64,000 bases of DNA from Pseudomonadota bacterium (GCA_034439715.1 JAWXAY010000100.1:32001-96000); one strand, 5' to 3'; shown: positions 43,383-64,000, counted from the stretch's first letter. The notes: generated from the letters alone by a model not told the origin. Made by a program: numbers and translations.

Positions 43383-44942
43383 TTGGATCAAGAAATATTT
43401 GAGTGGCTGCTTTTATTAGGTCGATGGCTTCATATCACTGTCGCCATGGCGTGGATTGGCGCTTCATTCTTTTTCATGTGGCTCGATCGTACGCTTCAAA
43501 ATAATGAACTCTGGATGGTCCACGGCGGCGGATTTTACCAAGTTAAAAAACATCTCATGGGTCCGACAAGGGTTCCCAATCATTTGCACTGGTTTAAATG
43601 GGAGTCGTATTGGACCTGGCTCAGCGGACTTTTTTTAGTCATTCTGGTTTTTTATACCGGTAATGGTACTTTTCTTTTAGATTCGTCGGTTTCACAGGTC
43701 ACTTACTGGCAGGCCGTTGGCATAAGTGTGGCATCGATGCTGGTATCCTGGCTGTATTATGATTTTTTATGGGAAAGTAAACTTGCTAAAAATAAACCTA
43801 TAGTTGGGCACTTGCTAACTTTGTTGTGGTTTGTGGGTATGTCTTACTTTTTATGTCATACTCTCAGCGGTAGAGCTGCGTATATTCATGTTGGTGGCAT
43901 GCTTGGTACCTGGATGACCGCTAATGTGTTTTTGCGAATCATTCCTCGTCAACTTAAAATGGTTGAGGCCGCAAAGCTTGGCGAGACGGTAAATCAAGAG
44001 TGGAGCAAGAACGCTAAGAATCGATCGACTCACAATACCTATTTTACCTTACCTGTGATTTTCATAATGCTCAGCAATCACTTTCCGATGACCTATGGTC
44101 ATAACTTCAACTGGCTCATTCTATTAGTTATCAGCGCGGCTGGTGCTGCGATTCGTGAGTATTTTGTAGTTCGTCTGCAAAACCCTATTCGTGCGAAAAT
44201 ATTCGCTGCCGTCGGGGTCGTGTTGATTTTGGGAGTTATGTTTTTTACCAAGCAGAAGACACTTGTTCCCATAGAAACATATTCGGCTAAAGTTTCTGTA
44301 GAAAATCTTGGTCCAACGGCAAATGTTAAAGGTGTTGTAAAGTTTGTAGGACCAGTACCGGTGGGCGAAAAGTTGCAGTTACCATTGGAGTGTAGGCAGG
44401 GCCGCGAGGGCGAGACTTTTTCAAATGAAGTTGTGGTTAATAACGGTAGGATAAAAAATGTACTGATAAGAATCACCAAGGGGCTTGAAGGCAAAGTTTT
44501 TGGCGATGTGCCCGAGACTCCCGTACTCTTGGATCAAATAGATTGTCTCTATGAACCAAGGGTGATTGGTGTTCGAGTTGGCCAAAAAATAGAAATTATT
44601 AATAGTGATTCTTTATTTCACAATGTGCGAGCGCTTACCAAAAACAATGAAGAGTTTAATATTTCAATGCCACAAAAAAACGATCGCTTTACTAAAGTAT
44701 TTATGAAACCCGAAGTATTTTTACAAACAAAGTGTAGTGTACATCCCTGGATGAGTGCCTATATTGCCGTTATAGAACACCCCTTTTTTAGCGTTACTAA
44801 TGATACTGGCGAGTTTTTGATTAAGGATTTACCTTATGGGAACTATGCACTTGAAATTTGGCACGAAGTGTTCGGCGTTCAGACAAAAGAGATATCAGTA
44901 ACTAAAGATCAGGATATTGAGTTTACCTTCAAAAGGGAGTGA
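43383..44942 (+). CDS. puuD: PuuD-type membrane urate oxidase domain fused to a cupredoxin/beta-sandwich C-terminal domain
   Basis: RWLH...AWIG, LWMVHGGGFY, LHWFKWE.Y.TWLSG, SGRAAY.HVG, NV...IIP.Q, RS.HNTY.TLPV...M.SNH; C-terminal HNV...CSVHPWM; no CxxCH. Confidence 0.88.
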   Translation: MDQEIFEWLLLLGRWLHITVAMAWIGASFFFMWLDRTLQNNELWMVHGGGFYQVKKHLMGPTRVPNHLHWFKWESYWTWLSGLFLVILVFYTGNGTFLLDSSVSQVTYWQAVGISVASMLVSWLYYDFLWESKLAKNKPIVGHLLTLLWFVGMSYFLCHTLSGRAAYIHVGGMLGTWMTANVFLRIIPRQLKMVEAAKLGETVNQEWSKNAKNRSTHNTYFTLPVIFIMLSNHFPMTYGHNFNWLILLVISAAGAAIREYFVVRLQNPIRAKIFAAVGVVLILGVMFFTKQKTLVPIETYSAKVSVENLGPTANVKGVVKFVGPVPVGEKLQLPLECRQGREGETFSNEVVVNNGRIKNVLIRITKGLEGKVFGDVPETPVLLDQIDCLYEPRVIGVRVGQKIEIINSDSLFHNVRALTKNNEEFNISMPQKNDRFTKVFMKPEVFLQTKCSVHPWMSAYIAVIEHPFFSVTNDTGEFLIKDLPYGNYALEIWHEVFGVQTKEISVTKDQDIEFTFKRE

Positions 44943-44943
44943 C

Positions 44944-45267
44944 ATGATAAGCACACATATTTTAGACACAAGTAAGGGCGTGCCAGCCGCAGGCATACCC
45001 GTTAAGTTAAGGTTTAGAAATGGGGACTCGTGGGCGGAGTTAGCGGTTGGAAAAACCAACTCTGACGGGCGATGCTCCTTTGAGTGCGAAATTGCTATGG
45101 GCATTTATAAAATTGTTTTTGAGGTGGAAGAATATCTCAAAAAACAAACTAAAGATTATTTTTACTCAAAAGTACCAGTCGTATTTAAGGTAACAGATGT
45201 TGGCCGCAAGTATCACGTGCCACTACTCTTGAATCCGTTTGGCTACTCCACTTATAGAGGTAGCTGA
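44944..45267 (+). CDS. uraH: 5-hydroxyisourate hydrolase (transthyretin-like)
   Basis: STHILD...G.PA, TNSDGR, YHVPLLL.PFGYSTYRGS C-terminal signature. Confidence 0.96.
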   Translation: MISTHILDTSKGVPAAGIPVKLRFRNGDSWAELAVGKTNSDGRCSFECEIAMGIYKIVFEVEEYLKKQTKDYFYSKVPVVFKVTDVGRKYHVPLLLNPFGYSTYRGS

Positions 45268-45306: not shown

Positions 45307-48300
45307 GTGACAGATGCGTTATTGAATTATTTGAAGCGCGAAAGCCGTCCAGTTGTCGGCGTATCTGAGTTGATGGAAGTCGGAAAAGGAGGAGGACTTG
45401 AGAATAAAGAATCGTTAAAATTTTTGTGTGAATTATACGACCAGCTAAAAGAGAATCTTAATCAAGTTTTAAACCAGAGAAAAACTGATCGTCACTTTAT
45501 CGATCAGCGAACCCGCGCTTGTTATGAGCTCAATAAAAACCTTGGTATCGATTTTATATCTCCTCAATACGAAACAATTATTGGCCATGAGGATGCAAAT
45601 GGCCGAATCGTTATCGGCCCCAAAAATGATTTTTATGCAAAAAGTGGTGGCGGTAAACCTATTGCGCAATTGCCCGATTTTTTACAGGGTCACCACGTGA
45701 CTTTATTTGGTCCGCCAGATGATGCCAAACTTTCTATAAATGCCATGAATGCCTTTTATAGAAAAACCAAGGACGAACCTGAAATCGTATCGGAACTACT
45801 TTCAACCCACTTGAGTAATCCCAAGTGGGGTGCCGACGATGAAGATTCTAAGACGCCACTTAGAGCTGATTTAGTTGCGGCCGGTGAAAATCTTACCAGG
45901 TGTTTTGCTGGCGATCTTGAGTATACCGATCCCAAAACACAAAAAAAATATGCGCTAGAAAAGGGACGACTCGCTCTCCCTATTAAGCGATTCCCGGGTT
46001 TAGCTTTACCCTGTACTTTTCTGCTATATCGAGACAATCCGCTGCCGCTTCACCTTTACGATTTTGCTCTTCATCTTTTTGAGAATTGGCATAACGAACA
46101 AGCGTTATCGTTTTATGTGCCTAAGCTCGAAAATGAAGAAGAGGCCCGATATATTTACTTGATGTGCGACACTGCAGAGGCGATGATTCAAAAACTCCAC
46201 CCCGAGTATAAAAAGGGCGCCATCAGGCTGTTTGTCGTTCTAGAAAATCCTCGGGCGATTTTTCGTGTCAATGAAATCATGGATGCACTTTACCCTTATT
46301 TTGCTGGCGCCTCTCTAGGCTGGCACGATTATTTAAGCTCCGCCGCTCGTTTGTTTAAGAATGATGCTAACTATCGGATTCCTGTTAAAGCTGATCCAGA
46401 TATAGTAATTAAATATATTAAGGCTTCACATGATTTGCTGGCACAGGTTGTTGGTTCGCGTGGTGGAGTCAAAATTGGTGGAATGTACGGCGTTCTGCCA
46501 ATGGATAGTGATCTGTTTAGTCCCTCATACCAAATTGCCATAAAGGGTTTTATAAAAGATGTCGTTACCGAGCTTAAAAGAAATCTCTCAGGTTTTTGGG
46601 TGGCACATCCCGATTTTATTCGGTGTGCACTGGCCATAGTTGAAAGCTGGAAATTTTATCAGTCAGGTGATAAATCAAAACTAGATACCTTGGTCACCTG
46701 CCTTTTAGATAAAAAATACCATAAGGAAATTAGGGAGTTTATCCATGCCCGCGATTTGGCGGGACTCGACGTCAATGACCCGCTCTATGCAAGGTCATTG
46801 ATTGTCGCCGATATTAAAGAATCGACGTTTATTGCCAATAATCATCCCGATGAAATTCGTTACAATGTGTTTCAGTCTCTGCAGTATTTGACGGATTGGT
46901 TAAGTGGCAATGGTTGTGTGGCGTTACCAGCCGAAATAGAGGGTGTGCCGGTACGAGTAATGGATGATTTGGCTACGGCCGAACGCTCCCGGTGGGAGGT
47001 CTGGCATGAGCTGCACCACGGTCGCTTTAATCTAGAGGAATTTTTGAAAATTGCGCATGAAGAGATGATATTTATACGCAAAGATCTTTCGAACTCAAAA
47101 AAAATCGTACAGGTTAAGTGGAATGAGCGGACTGAAAAATGGTACCCAGTGGCCATGAGGCTAATGATTGAACTAATGACTAGCCCGGCGCCAGTTGAAT
47201 TTGCGACTGAGCTTTTAATGTCATTTACAGTGGACTCGATTAGGCAAGAAGCAGATCCTCTTTTGGCATTGAGTAAGATAGATCCCGGCAAACTTGCTTT
47301 GAATTCATATATAGAGCGCTTTAATTACTATTTTTTAATTTGCGGCAATCTTGTTTTTGCAAAGACGATGGCCCAAAATATATCGGTTGATTTAGCGCTG
47401 GCAGAAAAACTTATAAACAACTTTACTTTGGATGAAGTTAAGGCCGCCGCGTATTTTCATGGTGACATTGGCGAGAATAAGAAAACACTTGATGAAATGG
47501 CATCAAATGAGCAGGCGCTGGTGCTGAATGAGGACAATAAAATTAAGTCCGAGTTAGCCGATCTTGGTTTTAAATACCTGCAAAAATTTGGAGTAAAGTT
47601 TTTAATTTCTGCAAAAAACAAATCTGGAAAAGAAATAGTGTCAGCGCTTAGGACGCGCCTCGAAAATACGGCTTCACAAGAATTGATCAATGCCAAGTCT
47701 GCGCTTTGGGAAATTAGCCTTAAGCGATTAAAAACTCAAGCGGAGCAAAGCCTTCATCAGCAAATCGAGAGATTGCGAGCTATGCACAATATTGGAGATG
47801 CCGCAGTCAGTGTTTCATTGCCGGGGGGAAGTGGGCAATTGCTTTGTTTTGGTGGGGCGACCGAGCAAACCTGGTTTCAATATGCGTCTTTAAGTAAAAC
47901 GTTGTCCAGTTGTTTTGCCGTCGAATACTTTCACAATAAAAATATTTCTCTCGATACTCCCGTGGATTCTTTGTTAGAAAAAACAGAATCTGCATTTCGC
48001 ATAAAGTCTGCTGAGGTTACGCTCCGTCACCTTATGAATCACACAGCGCTAAACATGCATTACGTCAACGGAGTGCCAACAGCAGAAAAAATGCCAAATG
48101 TACGTGAGTTGCTTGACCCGATTGTCGTGACCAATGTGCCGGGCACGAGATTTCAGTATTCTGGCGGCGGATTTCTAGTGCTCCAACATCTTATCGAAGC
48201 TTTAGAAGGAAAAACTATTGTTGAGATTACCAAAACGTTTTTTGACAAGTTAGATTTAAAAAATTTAAGCTTTGCACCAGTGCCTGCTCCTAATATGGAA

Positions 48301-49848
48301 AAAATGTTCCCCGCTTTTGCGGCGGGCGTCCTAGGTACTGCCACTGACATGTCGCGATTTTTAGGGTGCCTCACTGGCGCCTATAAATCGTTAGACGGCG
48401 CGGGCCCCATTTCTCATAATACTGCGATAGAGATGTTACACGGTGCAGACGTTGGAAGTTTTAAGTTCATAGGAGCAAAAATGGGGCTCGGTGTTTTTAT
48501 AGCCGAAGCTGGCCCTAATCGCCTCATGTTACATCAGGGCGCGAATGATGGGTTCCGATCGGTTTTTGTTCACTGCTTTGATGGCCCCGATAGCGGCACT
48601 GGGTTTGTGGTGCTGTGCACTGGTGATTTTAATGGGGTCTTGTTTATTTCTGAAGTAGCGCAATTAATATTTAAGGAACTTAACCTAAAAGGTGTCGACA
48701 CAAATAAATTTCTGAATAAATTTGAACTCTTAAATATCCCGCCTGAGGAAGTAGTCAATCGAGCCTATAAAAATTTACTGTTTGATGCCTTTGAGCCAGA
48801 TTTGCCGGAAGTGATCAAACAAAAGGGCCCGCTTGACCCCCTCGCTTCAAAAAATCTCGCCGTAGGCGGTAAAATCGTAGAGACCAGCAATCAAGGCTTT
48901 GCCCGAGCTGAAAATCTTTTATCTCCGCACTTGCCGACATTTGATTCTGAGCTTTATGGCCGTCAAGGAAAAATAATGGATAGCTGGGAATCTGTACGTC
49001 ATAACCCTAATTCAAACGACTATCTCATTTTTGAGTTAAAAAAACCGTCAACAATTTCTCAGGTTTCTCTATCCACAAAATATCACCTCGGGAATCACGC
49101 TGAGGCAGTGGAAATCGAAGGTCTCGACAGTCAAGGGCAGTGGCAGAGAATTATCGCGAAAACTGAGTTAAATGGACATGCCATTAAATTTCTCCTATCG
49201 CTGGCTAATAAATCGATTTTTACGACTATTAAAGTTTCGATGTTTCCTGACGGAGGATTAACCCGATTGGGTCTCTACAAAGATGAGCTCCCGGAACAGC
49301 CAAAAAACCAGATTTTTAGTGAAGGCATTCCTCACACTAATAAGCCGCTCACACCTCAGTTTAAGGGAGCACCACGTTTTTCGTCTGGCATCGAAATAGA
49401 TATTGCCAGCCAGGCTTACGGCGGAAAAATAATTAGTGTGTCGAATCAGCATTATGGTCCGGCTTCTCAAATTATTTCACCCTATCCGCCAATCAACATG
49501 TTCGATGGTTTTGAATCTGCGCGCAGTCGAGAAGCAGATCATTTCGAAGATGTGATTATTGAACTGGGTCGACCCGCAAAAATTAGCCGTATCGAAATAG
49601 ATTTTACCTACTTTAAAAACAATAACCCTCGCGAATTAAGCATAGAGGGATTATCTAAAAATGGCTGGGTTGTTTTAGTGACAAAAACAAACGTCAAAGC
49701 GTATGCCGGTAATGTGGTAGAGTTTAAGCCAAAAAATACAGAGGAGATCAAACAAGTGAAAGTCGTGGTTTTTCCAGATGGCGGAATAAATCGGGTCAAA
49801 GTTTTTACGAGACCAGAGAAGAGACCTGAGAAGGGACCAGCAACATGA
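45307..49848 (+). CDS. Multidomain purine-catabolism protein: malate synthase + OHCU decarboxylase + beta-lactamase-fold serine hydrolase + allantoicase
   Basis: aa ~1-640 ADDED/FYVPKLE/WHDY/WVAHP/MDDLATAE; aa ~670-808 HGDIG/EQA/Y.QKFG..FLI/I...RL; aa ~817-1125 ASLSK/YSGGG/HQG; aa ~1183-1500 two allantoicase repeats (MDSWES.R..FPDGG, DGFESAR..FPDGG). Confidence 0.88.
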   Translation: MTDALLNYLKRESRPVVGVSELMEVGKGGGLENKESLKFLCELYDQLKENLNQVLNQRKTDRHFIDQRTRACYELNKNLGIDFISPQYETIIGHEDANGRIVIGPKNDFYAKSGGGKPIAQLPDFLQGHHVTLFGPPDDAKLSINAMNAFYRKTKDEPEIVSELLSTHLSNPKWGADDEDSKTPLRADLVAAGENLTRCFAGDLEYTDPKTQKKYALEKGRLALPIKRFPGLALPCTFLLYRDNPLPLHLYDFALHLFENWHNEQALSFYVPKLENEEEARYIYLMCDTAEAMIQKLHPEYKKGAIRLFVVLENPRAIFRVNEIMDALYPYFAGASLGWHDYLSSAARLFKNDANYRIPVKADPDIVIKYIKASHDLLAQVVGSRGGVKIGGMYGVLPMDSDLFSPSYQIAIKGFIKDVVTELKRNLSGFWVAHPDFIRCALAIVESWKFYQSGDKSKLDTLVTCLLDKKYHKEIREFIHARDLAGLDVNDPLYARSLIVADIKESTFIANNHPDEIRYNVFQSLQYLTDWLSGNGCVALPAEIEGVPVRVMDDLATAERSRWEVWHELHHGRFNLEEFLKIAHEEMIFIRKDLSNSKKIVQVKWNERTEKWYPVAMRLMIELMTSPAPVEFATELLMSFTVDSIRQEADPLLALSKIDPGKLALNSYIERFNYYFLICGNLVFAKTMAQNISVDLALAEKLINNFTLDEVKAAAYFHGDIGENKKTLDEMASNEQALVLNEDNKIKSELADLGFKYLQKFGVKFLISAKNKSGKEIVSALRTRLENTASQELINAKSALWEISLKRLKTQAEQSLHQQIERLRAMHNIGDAAVSVSLPGGSGQLLCFGGATEQTWFQYASLSKTLSSCFAVEYFHNKNISLDTPVDSLLEKTESAFRIKSAEVTLRHLMNHTALNMHYVNGVPTAEKMPNVRELLDPIVVTNVPGTRFQYSGGGFLVLQHLIEALEGKTIVEITKTFFDKLDLKNLSFAPVPAPNMEKMFPAFAAGVLGTATDMSRFLGCLTGAYKSLDGAGPISHNTAIEMLHGADVGSFKFIGAKMGLGVFIAEAGPNRLMLHQGANDGFRSVFVHCFDGPDSGTGFVVLCTGDFNGVLFISEVAQLIFKELNLKGVDTNKFLNKFELLNIPPEEVVNRAYKNLLFDAFEPDLPEVIKQKGPLDPLASKNLAVGGKIVETSNQGFARAENLLSPHLPTFDSELYGRQGKIMDSWESVRHNPNSNDYLIFELKKPSTISQVSLSTKYHLGNHAEAVEIEGLDSQGQWQRIIAKTELNGHAIKFLLSLANKSIFTTIKVSMFPDGGLTRLGLYKDELPEQPKNQIFSEGIPHTNKPLTPQFKGAPRFSSGIEIDIASQAYGGKIISVSNQHYGPASQIISPYPPINMFDGFESARSREADHFEDVIIELGRPAKISRIEIDFTYFKNNNPRELSIEGLSKNGWVVLVTKTNVKAYAGNVVEFKPKNTEEIKQVKVVVFPDGGINRVKVFTRPEKRPEKGPAT

Positions 49849-50627
49849 AAAAGTTACGGAGGTGGGTGATTAAGGCAGGTAGTAAAATGGTGTGCGATGG
49901 TGGTCCTCTCCTTTTACTGAGTTGGATGCGGCAAGTTGATGAGTTAAGACGCAAACATAAAATCGAAGTTATTTGGGTGACTTCAGGAGCCATTTCCTGG
50001 GCTGTGAATCGCACCAAGTTTAAAAAACTGAATCGTAAACTTCAGCAAAAGCAGGCACTAAGTGCCATTGGGCAACCGTTGGTAATGGAACAGTATAATC
50101 TGGCCCTTCATAAATTAAACCTATTGGGCTCTCAGGTTTTGTTAACAGCGGGAGACATGCGAGATCGCACTCGGCGGAGAAATTTACAAAATACGCTCAA
50201 TGAAATCTTACGCTGGAAGGTCACTCCAATACTCAATGAAAATGATGCTGTTGCCACCGAAGAAATCCAGTTTGGTGACAATGATTCATTGGCCTCGCAA
50301 GTAGCCATCATGATGAAAGCCGAACGTTTGGTATTGATGACGGATGTAGACGGTCTTTTCGATGATGATCCCAAAAAGAATAAGAGAGCTAAGTTGATCA
50401 ATTATCGGCGCCGAATTAGTAAAGTAGACCTTCGCTTAGCTCGCAAAAAATCTAAATCTCTGCAAGGCACGGGCGGAATGTTTTCAAAACTTTTGGCTGT
50501 CCGTAGAGCGAGTCGCTCAGGTGTCGTCTGCCATTTGGTGCGTGGTGACTCTCCTAAAAATCTGTTAGAGATTGCCTCTGACCGGTCGGTCGGCACTCAA
50601 ATAGGTGGACTCTATGAAAACAAATAG
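49845..50627 (+). CDS. proB: Glutamate 5-kinase (no PUA domain)
   Basis: VIKAGS, VTSGA, AIGQ, NEND, FGDND.LA, GTGGM.SK. Confidence 0.95.
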   Translation: MKKLRRWVIKAGSKMVCDGGPLLLLSWMRQVDELRRKHKIEVIWVTSGAISWAVNRTKFKKLNRKLQQKQALSAIGQPLVMEQYNLALHKLNLLGSQVLLTAGDMRDRTRRRNLQNTLNEILRWKVTPILNENDAVATEEIQFGDNDSLASQVAIMMKAERLVLMTDVDGLFDDDPKKNKRAKLINYRRRISKVDLRLARKKSKSLQGTGGMFSKLLAVRRASRSGVVCHLVRGDSPKNLLEIASDRSVGTQIGGLYENK

Positions 50628-51873
50628 CGAAATGGAGCAGGCGCTCGTGTCTCTCCGCCAAGGAAACCGTCAGCTGCGAGGATTAAGTGCTGCGCGAAAA
50701 AACAAAACGTTAATAAAACTAGCAGAGATTATAGAAAGCGAAGCTCCGACAATTTTGAGCGCAAATCTCATTGATCTAAAACAGCTACCCAAAGACACAA
50801 CAGCCGCATTTCGTGACCGACTTGCGCTAGATCAAGACCGTGTGTTGGCTATGGTGCAAAGTCTGAGGGAAGTGGCAAACCTCACTGATCCCGTCGGTGA
50901 AGTCATCGATGAAAAAACTCTTTCTAATAATTTAAGACTGAAGCGGGTGCGTTCTCCTTTGGGTCTTATCTTTATGATTTTTGAGTCCCGACCAAACGTG
51001 ATTCTTGAGGCCTTTTCGCTCGCATTTAAATCCGGGAATTCAATAATACTTCGCGGCGGGTCAGACTCAGGCGCCACGAGCAAAGTAATTTATGGGTTAA
51101 TGGCTAATGCCCTTTCAGAAAGTGGCGTGGAGTTTTCGGTATTCTATGGCTTGCAAGATTATGACCGAGGCATCGTCGAGAATTTGCTAAAAAGAAAAAA
51201 TCTTATCGATGTCGTTGTTCCGAGAGGTGGAGAAAAATTAATAGATTTTGTGCAGAGTCATGCTCTTATGCCAATTATTAAAAATGATCGTGGTCTATGC
51301 CATACCTATGTAGACGAAGACGCCGATCTCGAAATGGCGGTGCGAATTGTAGCAAATGCAAAAACTCAGAGGCCCGGTGTGTGTAACGCTCTAGAGACAG
51401 TTCTCGTTCACCAAAATTGCGCTAAGGATTTTATTCCTAAGCTTTACCAGGCAACCGAATCCGTAAAATTAACCTGGCGAGTGGACCAGGCGAGCCTAAG
51501 TATTTTAAAAAATGAATCACGTGTACAGTTGGCTTCGCCAGCGGATTGGGATACAGAGTATCTTGATCTTATCATGAATTGTCGTATTGTTTCTAATTTG
51601 GATAGCGCCATTGAGCATATTGAGCGACACGGCTCAAAACACTCCGAAGCCATTGTGACAAGTTCTGAAAAAAAAGCTCGGAATTTTCAAAATGAGGTCG
51701 ATGCGGCGGCCGTTTATTGGAATGCTTCGACTCGATTTACAGATGGTTTTGAGTTTGGTTTGGGGGGCGAGCTTGGTATTAGCACTCAAAAAATTCACGT
51801 GCGGGGACCGGTTGGACTTCGCGAATTAACTACTCCCCGCTGGATTATCGATGGCGACGGGCAAGTTCGGTAA
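50605..51873 (+). CDS. proA: Gamma-glutamyl phosphate reductase
   Basis: FESRPNV, PRGG, VCNALET, NASTRFTDG, GISTQK.HVRGP.GL; start may be ATG 50614. Confidence 0.96.
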   Translation: MDSMKTNSEMEQALVSLRQGNRQLRGLSAARKNKTLIKLAEIIESEAPTILSANLIDLKQLPKDTTAAFRDRLALDQDRVLAMVQSLREVANLTDPVGEVIDEKTLSNNLRLKRVRSPLGLIFMIFESRPNVILEAFSLAFKSGNSIILRGGSDSGATSKVIYGLMANALSESGVEFSVFYGLQDYDRGIVENLLKRKNLIDVVVPRGGEKLIDFVQSHALMPIIKNDRGLCHTYVDEDADLEMAVRIVANAKTQRPGVCNALETVLVHQNCAKDFIPKLYQATESVKLTWRVDQASLSILKNESRVQLASPADWDTEYLDLIMNCRIVSNLDSAIEHIERHGSKHSEAIVTSSEKKARNFQNEVDAAAVYWNASTRFTDGFEFGLGGELGISTQKIHVRGPVGLRELTTPRWIIDGDGQVR

Positions 51874-63334: not shown

Positions 63335-64000
63335 TTAATGAATAATCACTGCGCCCATTTCGGCAAACTGTCTTAACTCGTAGCTACTAAACGGAGCCGC
63401 AATAACAGAGGCAGTGGCCGGACGAATAACTCTTTCAATGATATTTCGAACATCATAAGCACTGTAGGGTGCTCCCAATATAACAGAGCCTCCCATTTCT
63501 GCAAAGCTGCGGCAATCATAGGTGCTAAATTTTCCGCAACGAACCGAAACGCGACTATGTCCAATACCTATAAAAGTTTTAATATCATAACTACTATATT
63601 CATAACCTACTACGACCGAGCCACCTTTCTCGAGCCGTTGTCTAATTTCATAGGCACTGGTATTGGGATTTTGTTGTCCATCAATGCCTGCGCCCATTTC
63701 TGCGAATTGTCGCAGCTCATAGTCACTGTAGCCATGGGCCATTACAATGGCCGTTGCAGGACTAATAATTTCTTCTAGTATTATACGAACTTCGTAAGCG
63801 CTGTAGGGTTGGCCTAAAATCGTAGATGCACTTTTTTCTGCAAACCCTCGGCAATCATAGACACTAAATCCAGCACCACATCGTACTGTTACTCGGCTTT
63901 TACCGATATCTATGAAAGTCCCCACCTCATAAGTACTAAATTCGTTTCCAACAACGACTGATCCCCCAGCTTCAAGCTCTTGACGAATTTCATAGGCGCT
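63335..64000 (-). CDS. Tandem-repeat protein of unknown family (5'-truncated by window)
   Basis: Frame open to the window edge (SAYEIRQELEAGGSVVVG...); ten ~21-25-aa S.Y[ED].R repeats. Confidence 0.8.
   Translation of the reverse strand, partial: SAYEIRQELEAGGSVVVGNEFSTYEVGTFIDIGKSRVTVRCGAGFSVYDCRGFAEKSASTILGQPYSAYEVRIILEEIISPATAIVMAHGYSDYELRQFAEMGAGIDGQQNPNTSAYEIRQRLEKGGSVVVGYEYSSYDIKTFIGIGHSRVSVRCGKFSTYDCRSFAEMGGSVILGAPYSAYDVRNIIERVIRPATASVIAAPFSSYELRQFAEMGAVIIH

Follow-up and report, generated by a model that had tools for sequence, protein, structure and literature searches.

Ring opening of (S)-allantoin is carried out in AllB/DAL1 (TIGR03178) by a TIM-barrel amidohydrolase with a carbamylated lysine, two metals and a metal-activated water. 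PuuE/HpxB (TIGR03212), a metal-independent enzyme of the polysaccharide-deacetylase fold, provides a precedent for the recruitment of a non-homologous protein to the allantoinase step, and was found by pathway-hole logic. Consecutive ureide enzymes also occur fused, as in the bifunctional allantoicase/OHCU decarboxylase (NF010371) and in the multi-domain Urah-Urad 'allantoin synthase' fusions (reviewed in PMC13751858); these fusions skip the allantoinase step. In contrast, a 1513-residue protein encoded in the 64,000-nucleotide stretch of DNA analysed here (the window) has a beta-lactamase-fold (BL) module in that gap and a malate-synthase-like (MS-like) module in addition.

The BL module resembles AllB/DAL1 in its proposed reaction and in its equivalent operon place beside allantoicase, and the two alternate by genome; it differs in that a serine nucleophile is proposed for it. 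Its fold is not that of PuuE/HpxB, and is shared with the PF00144 relatives, comprising class-C beta-lactamases, the Streptomyces R61 DD-peptidase, the family VIII esterases IS11 and EstB, LACTB and D-aminopeptidase/alkaline D-peptidase, whose S-x-x-K and Tyr motifs align with those of the module. Its H-x-G third motif presumably resembles the HTG of R61. The BL subfamily differs from these relatives in its extra invariant residues H912, H918-Y919, N1080 and R1084. A further comparison concerns the neighbouring MS-like module and not the BL domain. Zebrafish DrMSL is a ureidoglycolate lyase that keeps the glyoxylate/Mg site with Arg276 substituted (Dembech et al. 2023, PMC10120013), and the MS-like module has the same two features and sits in a purine-degradation protein. 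The replacing residue is Ile in DrMSL but Trp in the module from the window, which keeps Trp365; according to that paper, its ureidoglycolate lyase group comprises eukaryotic sequences only.

A urate-degradation cluster with a four-module fusion protein

The cluster comprises three genes on one strand (Table 1).

Table 1. Coordinates of the cluster, and of the modules and motifs of the fusion protein, in the window.
Feature	Position	Strand	Evidence or remark
puuD, PuuD-type membrane urate oxidase, 519 aa	43383..44942	+	PF06181 Urate_ox_N E 3.1e-102, residues 5-287; first gene of cluster
5-hydroxyisourate (HIU) hydrolase, 116 aa	44917..45267	+	PF00576 Transthyretin/HIUase E 6.8e-35; overlaps puuD 3' end
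Four-module fusion ORF, 1513 aa (MS-like, OHCU decarboxylase, BL-fold, allantoicase)	45307..49848	+	Stop-free translation
MS-like module, residues 1-640	45307..47226	+	PF01274 + PF20659
OHCU decarboxylase module, residues ~660-812	47284..47742	+	PF09349 E 4.1e-17
BL serine hydrolase module, residues 813-1165, candidate allantoinase	47743..48801	+	PF00144 E 9.1e-24
S-L-S-K motif, S861 (presumed nucleophile) and K864	47887..47898	+	Alignments of homologues
Y951-S-G motif, putative counterpart of class-C Y-x-N	48157..48165	+	Aligned with Y-N-N of IS11
H1076-Q-G-A-N-D-G-F-R motif, putative counterpart of KTG/HTG, predicted beta-3 strand	48532..48558	+	Strand from AF2 model
Allantoicase module, two repeats, residues ~1185-1513	48859..49848	+	PF03561 E 1.6e-56, two stretches; TIGR02961 196.9 bits

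Pfam domain coordinates (MS_TIM-barrel/MS_C 229-635, OHCU_decarbox 699-809, Beta-lactamase 820-1109 and Allantoicase from 1187) place the BL domain between allantoicase and OHCU decarboxylase, the step whose product is (S)-allantoin, as the initial annotation had described. The OHCU decarboxylase module matches the solved OHCU decarboxylases 5UOU and 3O7H (E 1.5e-12). AllB itself (TIGR03178) was considered as a component of the fusion and rejected, the 1513-residue protein having no amidohydrolase domain. Fused homologues number 617, with lengths of 832 to 2648 residues, and PF09349, PF00144 and PF03561 are all present in the 120 of these that were listed. The fused allantoicase repeats are divergent, scoring ~100 bits against ~185 bits for stand-alone allantoicases.

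The MS-like module is the most conserved of the four, with 36% of its positions at least 97% conserved among 109 full-length homologues. Comparison with E. coli malate synthase A (3CUZ) reveals that the equivalents of E250, D278, R166 and D447 are kept, while R276 is replaced by W339 and W277 by H340. These substitutions, read alongside zebrafish DrMSL, point to a module that is probably a ureidoglycolate lyase rather than a malate synthase.

The host genome, 95.7% complete, encodes PuuD, HIU hydrolase, OHCU decarboxylase, allantoicase and a xanthine-dehydrogenase-type Mo subunit. The initial annotation had named in advance, as a test of its reading, the lack of allB and puuE elsewhere in this genome, and neither is found there over the curated cut-offs: the best AllB match reaches 279.5 bits against 357.85 and is classified as a dihydroorotase, and the best PuuE match 20.9 bits against 424.6. 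The same genome search found neither hydantoinase A nor the classical ureidoglycolate lyase (PF04115).

Predicted fold and catalytic motifs of the BL module

The BL module scores 84.7 bits on PF00144, whose cut-off is 27. In the AlphaFold2 model, residues 810-1180 (pLDDT 92.1, pTM 0.91) have the class-C beta-lactamase/DD-peptidase two-domain fold, alpha/beta plus all-alpha. Foldseek returned at least 500 matches at E <= 0.001. IS11 esterase, LACTB, R61 DD-peptidase and AmpC head the list with TM values of 0.63-0.70, and identity to any solved structure is only 16-21%. Assignment as a class C beta-lactamase proper was rejected, the module scoring 20.7 bits on NF033085 (bla_class_C) against a cut-off of 415.

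The motifs ASLSK (S861, K864), TLRHLMNHT, FQYSGGG (Y951) and HQG (H1076) stand in the translation at the residue numbers first given for them. The location proposed for the domain (47755-48680, residues 817-1125) was likewise sound, but its end was set too early: a conserved (I/V)VN..(Y/L)K..(L/V)F.AF stretch, also present in stand-alone homologues, extends the domain to ~1165. In the third motif the His is invariant but the Gly is not, and the motif is better written H-Q-G/A, taking the form H-Q-G in fused bacterial proteins, and mostly H-Q-A with some H-H-G/A in stand-alone, largely eukaryotic ones.

Among the 109 full-length homologues, conservation reaches at least 97% at each of S861, K864, Y951, S952, G953, H1076, Q1077 and G1078. 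S-L-S-K is invariant in alignments of 25 and 28 rows, and S861-x-x-K864 aligns with the S-x-x-K of IS11 esterase (7spn). In the 28-row alignment Tyr951 is kept in 27 rows, the exception being a protein from a genome that also has AllB (G236); the third-motif His and N1080 are present in all 28 and R1084 in 27, the latter two residues being specific to the BL subfamily. Y951 aligns with the Tyr of the IS11 Y-N-N, and the Asn position of Y-x-N is Gly953 in the BL module. From its position along the sequence and the predicted strand, H1076-Q-G may be equivalent to KTG. The active-site motifs thus depart from those of characterised relatives in having Y-S-G, not Y-x-N, and H-Q-G/A as the third motif.

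Alternation of the BL module and AllB across genomes

We surveyed 301 Bdellovibrionota genomes (minimum completeness setting 90), of which 295 reach 90% completeness or more with contamination of no more than 5%, calling the BL subfamily at E <= 1e-30 and AllB over its curated cut-off. Allantoicase was found in 73 genomes, BL in 44, AllB in 29 and PuuE in none of the 301. Cross-tabulation of the lists by hand showed that the 73 allantoicase genomes divide into 43 with BL only, 28 with AllB only, one with both and one with neither; BL or AllB occurs in none of the 228 genomes that lack allantoicase. BL and AllB therefore replace each other almost perfectly across allantoicase-bearing Bdellovibrionota (Fisher exact p = 6.7e-18 on the 2x2 table, a value overstated because related genomes are not independent). 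The absence of AllB and PuuE that had been predicted for homologue-bearing genomes is borne out in this sample, with AllB lacking in 43 of the 44 BL genomes. The one genome with both, G236, has a BL domain with Y951 changed to F, H918 to S and S863 to T; the one with neither (G271) is 90% complete, in 520 contigs, with its allantoicase in a 184-residue frame. Genera g85, g97 and g141 each contain both types in different genomes, which indicates that the switch happened repeatedly. Beyond this sample, five more genomes with BL, all of unstated completeness and three of them Planctomycetia MAGs, have neither AllB (0/5 over cut-off) nor PuuE (0/5).

The BL subfamily forms a clade apart from generic BL proteins (SH-aLRT 100), with PF00144 scores of 50-100 bits, where the nearest generic proteins reach 140-470. 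Its fusion partners, in the proteins seen, are only ureide enzymes: allantoicase and, in some proteins, also OHCU decarboxylase, ureidoglycolate lyase or the MS-like module. BL-allantoicase and OHCU-BL-allantoicase proteins were found as well, and dinoflagellate transcript P0170 encodes BL-ureidoglycolate lyase (PF04115)-allantoicase. Every fused form seen carries allantoicase, which agrees with the tie to purine catabolism that the initial annotation had set as a further test. The named sources of stand-alone BL proteins are protists. Of 97 stand-alone members of the subfamily with lengths of 380-500 residues, 42 have a peroxisomal PTS1-type C-terminus, [SAC][KRH][LM], against 0 of 15 generic BLs. 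Urate degradation is peroxisomal in many eukaryotes.

Proposed reaction and competing explanations

The fold and motifs of the BL module, its position between OHCU decarboxylase and allantoicase, the surrounding urate cluster and the complementarity with AllB lead us to propose that residues ~813-1165 are probably a serine-nucleophile allantoinase, a third non-homologous route from (S)-allantoin to allantoate. Comparative genomics thus supports the interpretation first suggested for this sequence. In the proposed mechanism, S861, activated by K864 and Y951, would attack the hydantoin ring at its C4 carbonyl, in the way that related enzymes act on a beta-lactam or a D-Ala-D-Ala amide; breakage of the N3-C4 bond would give an allantoyl-enzyme ester, from which a Y951-activated water would free allantoate for the adjoining allantoicase module, and the MS-like module would split ureidoglycolate into glyoxylate and urea. 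We know of no case of hydantoin hydrolysis in the beta-lactamase-like superfamily (PF00144); a literature search found no hydantoin-hydrolysing member of it, and no publication on the BL subfamily.

Five of the six AllB-type loci examined share a set of (PuuD), AllB, allantoicase, (OHCU decarboxylase), (HIU hydrolase) and DUF6986, all six parts being shown only by L089 and L093; the sixth, L094, has AllB and allantoicase only, with DUF6986 elsewhere on the contig. The counterpart in the window is PuuD, HIU hydrolase and the MS-like-OHCU-BL-allantoicase fusion, so that in AllB-type operons AllB stands in for BL, and the MS-like part has its counterpart in DUF6986 or classical ureidoglycolate lyase. 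Of the 29 AllB genomes, 24 carry DUF6986 and another four carry PF04115; the 43 BL-only genomes lack both. On phyletic pattern alone, the pair {BL, MS-like}, always found together in bacteria, replaces the pair {AllB, DUF6986/ureidoglycolate lyase}. This by itself leaves the two roles unseparated and, with BL associated with the whole pathway, would also agree with a different reading, in which the module is a ureide-pathway hydrolase acting on ureidoglycolate, ureidoglycine, an alternative ring-opened OHCU product or a side product, and allantoin is opened otherwise. The divergent allantoicase repeats fit such a reading too, as the fused pathway might handle a somewhat different intermediate. 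We nevertheless regard it as unlikely. Every other step has its own module or gene and allantoinase alone is missing; the module order OHCU-BL-allantoicase mirrors that of the pathway; in P0170 the partners of BL are allantoicase and a ureidoglycolate lyase of the classical type; and zebrafish MS-like proteins are ureidoglycolate lyases (PMC10120013). DUF6986, the partner of AllB, gives weak PF01274/PF03328 matches, carries 'citrate lyase beta' names and reaches an hhalign E of 0.002; by these comparisons it belongs with the MS/CitE TIM barrels, at weak similarity. It would therefore pair with the MS-like module, leaving BL to pair with AllB. The one-to-one pairing of BL with AllB rests on chemistry, the zebrafish result, the weak DUF6986-MS similarity and a single dinoflagellate fusion.

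Less probable still is that the BL module is a non-catalytic scaffold, oligomerisation or ligand-sensing module, with allantoin hydrolysed by a promiscuous enzyme. The host has three cyclic amidohydrolases scoring 180-280 bits on the AllB model (a PRK09060-type dihydroorotase, a D-hydantoinase and a pyrC-type dihydroorotase), of which the first two would be the candidates, and filament formation occurs in some BL-fold proteins, LACTB among them (title of entry 7ulw). Conservation of the catalytic Ser, Lys, Tyr and His across bacteria and eukaryotes would, however, be needless for a scaffold, and AllB is kept where BL is lacking. The PRK09060-type enzyme is over cut-off in three of four allantoicase-less relatives and absent from one AllB-type genome, and so does not follow the pathway; the D-hydantoinase sits among pyrimidine-catabolism genes. 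An accidental fusion of an ordinary peptidase, esterase or beta-lactamase with no purine role, as the Pfam and NCBI labels (beta-lactamase or serine hydrolase only) and the nearest solved structures (esterases, DD-peptidases, AmpC) would allow, is highly improbable given the separate, low-scoring clade, the allantoicase in all 44 BL genomes, the BL match within a frame of at least 1400 residues in 41 of them, and the conservation of the fusion in several hundred proteins.

If the allantoinase assignment is correct, the 1513-residue protein would lead from OHCU through allantoin, allantoate and ureidoglycolate to glyoxylate. Opening of the allantoin ring has been thought to be limited to two unrelated enzymes; the BL module would be a third kind, housed in a giant protein for uric-acid breakdown from a bacterium of predatory type.

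Architecture and conservation of the fusion protein

The four modules of the 1513-residue protein lie in a single uninterrupted reading frame, and the beta-lactamase-fold (BL) module, residues ~813-1165, sits between the OHCU decarboxylase and allantoicase modules, an arrangement proposed in the initial annotation and confirmed by the order of the Pfam domains (see table). NCBIfam models agree with these assignments, with each module scoring far under its equivalog cut-off; the score on the class-C beta-lactamase model, for instance, is 20.7 bits, with the cut-off at 415. The motifs ascribed to the BL module, ASLSK (S861/K864), TLRHLMNHT, FQYSGGG (Y951) and HQG (H1076), were all found at the residues named for them.

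Features of the fusion gene, its neighbourhood and the related loci
Feature	Position	Strand	Basis or remark
PuuD-type urate oxidase	43383-44942	+	immediately upstream of fusion gene
HIU hydrolase	44917-45267	+	immediately upstream of fusion gene
Four-module fusion ORF, 1513 codons, uninterrupted	45307-49848	+	translation
Malate-synthase-like (MS-like) module	45307-47226 (residues 1-640)		N-terminal module of fusion
Malate synthase TIM-barrel	residues 229-444 of 1513-aa protein	+	Pfam
Malate synthase C-terminal domain	residues 515-635 of 1513-aa protein	+	Pfam
OHCU decarboxylase	residues 699-809 of 1513-aa protein	+	Pfam
Beta-lactamase PF00144	residues 820-1109 of 1513-aa protein	+	Pfam, E 9.1e-24
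Allantoicase, two repeats	residue 1187 onward in 1513-aa protein	+	Pfam
proB (glutamate 5-kinase), then proA	49845-51873		downstream of fusion gene
DUF6986	L089:11588-12937		closes AllB-type ureide operon
DUF6986	L090:11071-12477		closes AllB-type ureide operon
DUF6986	L091:10761-12116		closes AllB-type ureide operon
DUF6986	L092:10842-12260		closes AllB-type ureide operon
DUF6986	L093:11062-12420		closes AllB-type ureide operon
G236 BL-allantoicase protein, 772 aa	L095:2303-4621	+	
G236 AllB-OHCU decarboxylase fusion, 617 aa	L097:7383-9236	-	adjoins HIU hydrolase

A search confined to residues 815-1130 gave 617 proteins of 832-2648 aa; in the 120 of these that were listed, OHCU decarboxylase, beta-lactamase and allantoicase domains occur together, in most cases with malate synthase domains as well. 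The named sources of the listed proteins are Bdellovibrio, Bacteriovorax and their relatives, and the database labels are 'serine hydrolase' or lists of domains. Bdellovibrio sp. HCB2-146 and Peredibacter sp. HCB2-198 are named as isolates with the fusion. Conservation was assessed in 109 of 121 proteins, those of 1400 aa or longer; S861, K864, Y951, S952, G953, H1076, Q1077 and G1078 are each at least 97% conserved, as are H912, H918, Y919, N1080 and R1084. An AlphaFold2 model of residues 810-1180, calculated from a 28-row alignment, has a pLDDT of 92.1 and a pTM of 0.91, and its Foldseek neighbours are IS11 esterase, LACTB, the R61 DD-peptidase and AmpC (TM 0.63-0.70, 16-21% identity). Sequence matches in the PDB are weak (best E 1.8e-5), with the S-x-x-K and Tyr motifs in register in the best alignment, and a protein atlas search returned generic beta-lactamase clusters only.

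The start codon of proB overlaps the stop codon of the fusion gene (ATGA) and proA overlaps proB, an arrangement that suggests co-transcription or translational coupling of proline synthesis with the urate-degradation genes. The C-terminal domain of PuuD is a cytochrome c. The C-terminal third of the PuuD reading frame found here differs from it: this part (44700-44942) has weak CarboxypepD_reg-like Pfam matches, all below cut-off, and by eye carries a His ... Cys-x-x-His-x-x-Met pattern resembling a putative type-1 copper (cupredoxin) site. A separate reading frame running off the window end (63335-64000, reverse strand) encodes repeat units of ~35-40 aa (…SAYE(V/I)R…, …YDCR(S/G)FAE(K/M)…).

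Distribution of the BL module and of the known allantoinases

By current understanding, allantoinases come in two unrelated forms, AllB/DAL1 and PuuE. The accessible text of a 2026 review of urate catabolism names only Zn-dependent and metal-independent allantoinases (PMC13751858), and full-text literature searches, with subscription journals outside their coverage, found no report of a BL-fold or serine allantoinase. An allB or puuE gene elsewhere in the genome had been named in the initial annotation as evidence against such an enzyme; neither has a match over its cut-off in the assembly (3.26 Mb, 95.7% complete), where the best PuuE score is 20.9 bits against 424.6. Three cyclic amidohydrolases are encoded, all under the AllB cut-off and assigned by NCBIfam as a PRK09060-type dihydroorotase, a pyrC-type dihydroorotase, and a D-hydantoinase that adjoins a methylmalonate-semialdehyde dehydrogenase and a carbamoyl-amidase-like gene, a context of pyrimidine catabolism. 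The PRK09060-type enzyme is unlikely to be a hidden allantoinase: three of four relatives lacking allantoicase have it over cut-off, one AllB-type genome lacks it, and it is therefore untied to ureide breakdown. Ureidoglycolate lyase PF04115, hydantoinase A and a malate synthase outside the fused module were not found in this genome; a xanthine-dehydrogenase-type molybdenum subunit is present.

We surveyed 301 Bdellovibrionota genomes selected at a minimum completeness of 90, of which 295 reach 90% completeness with contamination of 5% or less. The BL subfamily (query P0121; E <= 1e-30) is present in 44, AllB over its cut-off in 29, allantoicase in 73 and PuuE (E <= 1e-40) in none. A manual cross-tabulation of the genome lists placed every one of the 44 BL and 29 AllB genomes among the 73 with allantoicase, which comprise 43 with BL only, 28 with AllB only, one with both (G236) and one with neither (G271; 90% complete, 520 contigs, allantoicase in a 184-aa frame); neither BL nor AllB occurs in the 228 genomes that lack allantoicase. 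For these 73 genomes, a 2x2 table of BL against AllB gives p = 6.7e-18 by Fisher's exact test, a value that overstates the case because related genomes are not independent. More telling are three genera (g85, g97 and g141) in which BL-type and AllB-type genomes occur side by side.

For 41 of the 44 BL genomes, the open frame that contains the BL match is 1400 aa or longer, and frames of roughly 1540-1570 aa surround it in two metagenome loci (L102, L103). Outside the sample, five further BL genomes (labelled as three Planctomycetia, one Lysobacteraceae and one Myxococcales; completeness not given) have neither AllB over cut-off nor PuuE (0/5 each), and the two that were opened contain ORFs of 1623 and 1405 aa. 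Among the loci opened there is no clear example of an unfused bacterial BL gene in an operon. P0125, considered as a stand-alone bacterial BL protein, was rejected: its ORF runs off the contig end, and coding signal is poor upstream of it.

The sole genome of the 301 with both systems, G236, encodes its AllB as a fusion with OHCU decarboxylase and also has a stand-alone allantoicase. A separate cluster comprises PuuD, the BL-allantoicase protein, a one-repeat allantoicase, two class-V aminotransferases and a stand-alone MS-like gene. The BL module of G236 has Y951 replaced by F, the only one of the 28 aligned without the catalytic tyrosine, together with H918->S and S863->T. The substitutions, in this single case, fit the pattern expected if selection on a redundant enzyme had been relaxed.

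Replacement of operon members and a candidate ureidoglycolate lyase

Six AllB-type loci were examined (G004, G059, G077, G178, G187 and G250). All but G250 share one order, PuuD, AllB, allantoicase, OHCU decarboxylase, HIU hydrolase and DUF6986; all six parts were seen only in G004 (L089) and G187 (L093), with some members unseen in the other loci, and the G250 locus (L094) has AllB and allantoicase only, DUF6986 lying elsewhere on the same contig. The allantoicase of these operons is a stand-alone protein of ~340 aa, and DUF6986 (PF22484) is ~450 aa long. The window cluster encodes the same enzymes, with BL for AllB and the MS-like module for DUF6986.

Of the 73 allantoicase genomes, 24 encode DUF6986, and every one of these is of AllB type (24 of the 29 AllB genomes); PF04115 occurs in four other AllB-type genomes, in G271 and in one genome that lacks allantoicase. 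Each AllB genome thus encodes one, and no more than one, of DUF6986, PF04115 and an MS-like protein (the stand-alone gene in G236), and neither DUF6986 nor PF04115 occurs in any of the 43 BL-only genomes. The more than 8000 homologues of DUF6986 carry source names such as 'citrate lyase beta subunit' or 'phosphoenolpyruvate kinase', and a full-text search, with subscription journals outside its coverage, found no paper that mentions DUF6986. DUF6986 proteins often have weak malate-synthase and HpcH/CitE Pfam matches. BLASTP against the MS-like module gives E 0.46, and hhalign aligns the core strands (E 0.002, 13.5% probability), a similarity that is weak alone and was accepted only together with the Pfam co-matches.

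Zebrafish MS-like proteins are ureidoglycolate lyases by experiment, with the glyoxylate-site Arg276 substituted (PMC10120013). Within the window's fusion, conservation is highest in the MS-like module, where 230 of 640 positions are at least 97% conserved versus ~20% in the other modules. Relative to E. coli malate synthase A, the MS-like module keeps the equivalents of E250, D278, R166 and D447 and has Trp339 in place of Arg276 and His340 in place of Trp277. Because the equivalents of the malate synthase catalytic Asp and Arg are kept, the module may have genuine malate synthase activity. Taken together, the DUF6986-malate synthase similarity, the zebrafish result and the residues of the MS-like module pair this module with DUF6986 and ureidoglycolate lyase, and therefore BL with AllB; DUF6986 is a candidate for an unrecognised bacterial ureidoglycolate lyase.

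Protist homologues, proposed mechanism and significance

When 1.84 billion representatives were searched exhaustively with the BL module, 4269 matched at E <= 1e-3, and 81 of these reached E <= 1e-30. In a Pfam scan that covered 62 of the best 150, the close set scored about 30-100 bits on PF00144, with P0174 below the scan threshold, and the generic beta-lactamases that came next scored about 140-470 bits; the close set comprised BL-allantoicase, OHCU-BL-allantoicase, four-module and stand-alone forms. The stand-alone homologues are largely from EukProt and MMETSP transcriptomes, and also from Amorphochlora, Prymnesium parvum and Effrenium. P0291 is listed among the protist members, which include an MMETSP BL-allantoicase protein. 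A transcript of the dinoflagellate Polykrikos kofoidii (P0170) encodes a BL-ureidoglycolate lyase (PF04115)-allantoicase fusion, seen once and independent of the bacterial fusion; as it contains a classical ureidoglycolate lyase, BL cannot stand in for that step there. In a tree of 89 domains, a random subsample of 273 profile-covering sequences plus the window's own, the subfamily is set apart from 10 generic beta-lactamases (SH-aLRT 100); inside it, 36 rows form a fused clade that is mostly bacterial (support 90) and 40 rows a clade of mostly stand-alone proteins (support 83).

Urate-degrading enzymes are peroxisomal in many eukaryotes. A strict PTS1 end, [SAC][KRH][LM], is found in 42 of 97 stand-alone subfamily proteins (380-500 aa) and in none of 15 generic beta-lactamases in that length range. 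The ends SKL, SRL, ARL or AKM occur among the protist stand-alone proteins (P0145, P0146, P0157-P0159, P0165, P0169 and others listed). For zebrafish, a peroxisomal location of the urate-degrading enzymes is described in a further study (PMC8919083).

By analogy with class-C beta-lactamases and DD-peptidases, (S)-allantoin would be delivered to the BL module by the preceding OHCU decarboxylase module, and S861, activated by K864 and Y951, would attack the C4 carbonyl of its hydantoin ring. Breakage of the N3-C4 amide would leave an allantoyl ester on the enzyme, and hydrolysis of this ester would release allantoate to the following allantoicase module. The subfamily-specific invariant residues H912, H918/Y919, N1080 and R1084 are candidate binders of the ureido groups and the nascent carboxylate.

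The initial annotation's suggestion of a third, Ser-nucleophile allantoinase is the best-supported reading of the BL module, on the strength of the AllB/BL complementarity and the operon swap; the activity is a predicted one, and we regard it as quite probable. A wider reading, which we favour with somewhat less confidence, is that BL-fold serine-nucleophile allantoinases form a third class that repeatedly displaced AllB in Bdellovibrionota and that serves marine protists (haptophytes, dinoflagellates and chlorarachniophytes) as a peroxisome-targeted stand-alone or allantoicase-fused protein; that the MS-like module and the DUF6986 of the sister operons are unrecognised bacterial ureidoglycolate lyases; and that the 1513-aa protein is a single-chain 'ureide metabolon' converting OHCU to glyoxylate and two urea.

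Testing is straightforward, as the protein is one ORF with a known substrate and a predicted nucleophile, and it would offer a case of repeated non-orthologous displacement within single genera that can be tested directly. If the reading is true, hydantoin ring opening by covalent catalysis would be new chemistry for the beta-lactamase/DD-peptidase superfamily. Such an enzyme would also supply the missing pathway step in hundreds of bacterial genomes now annotated just 'serine hydrolase', and probably the same step in several marine algal and protist groups, where ureide use matters for nitrogen cycling.
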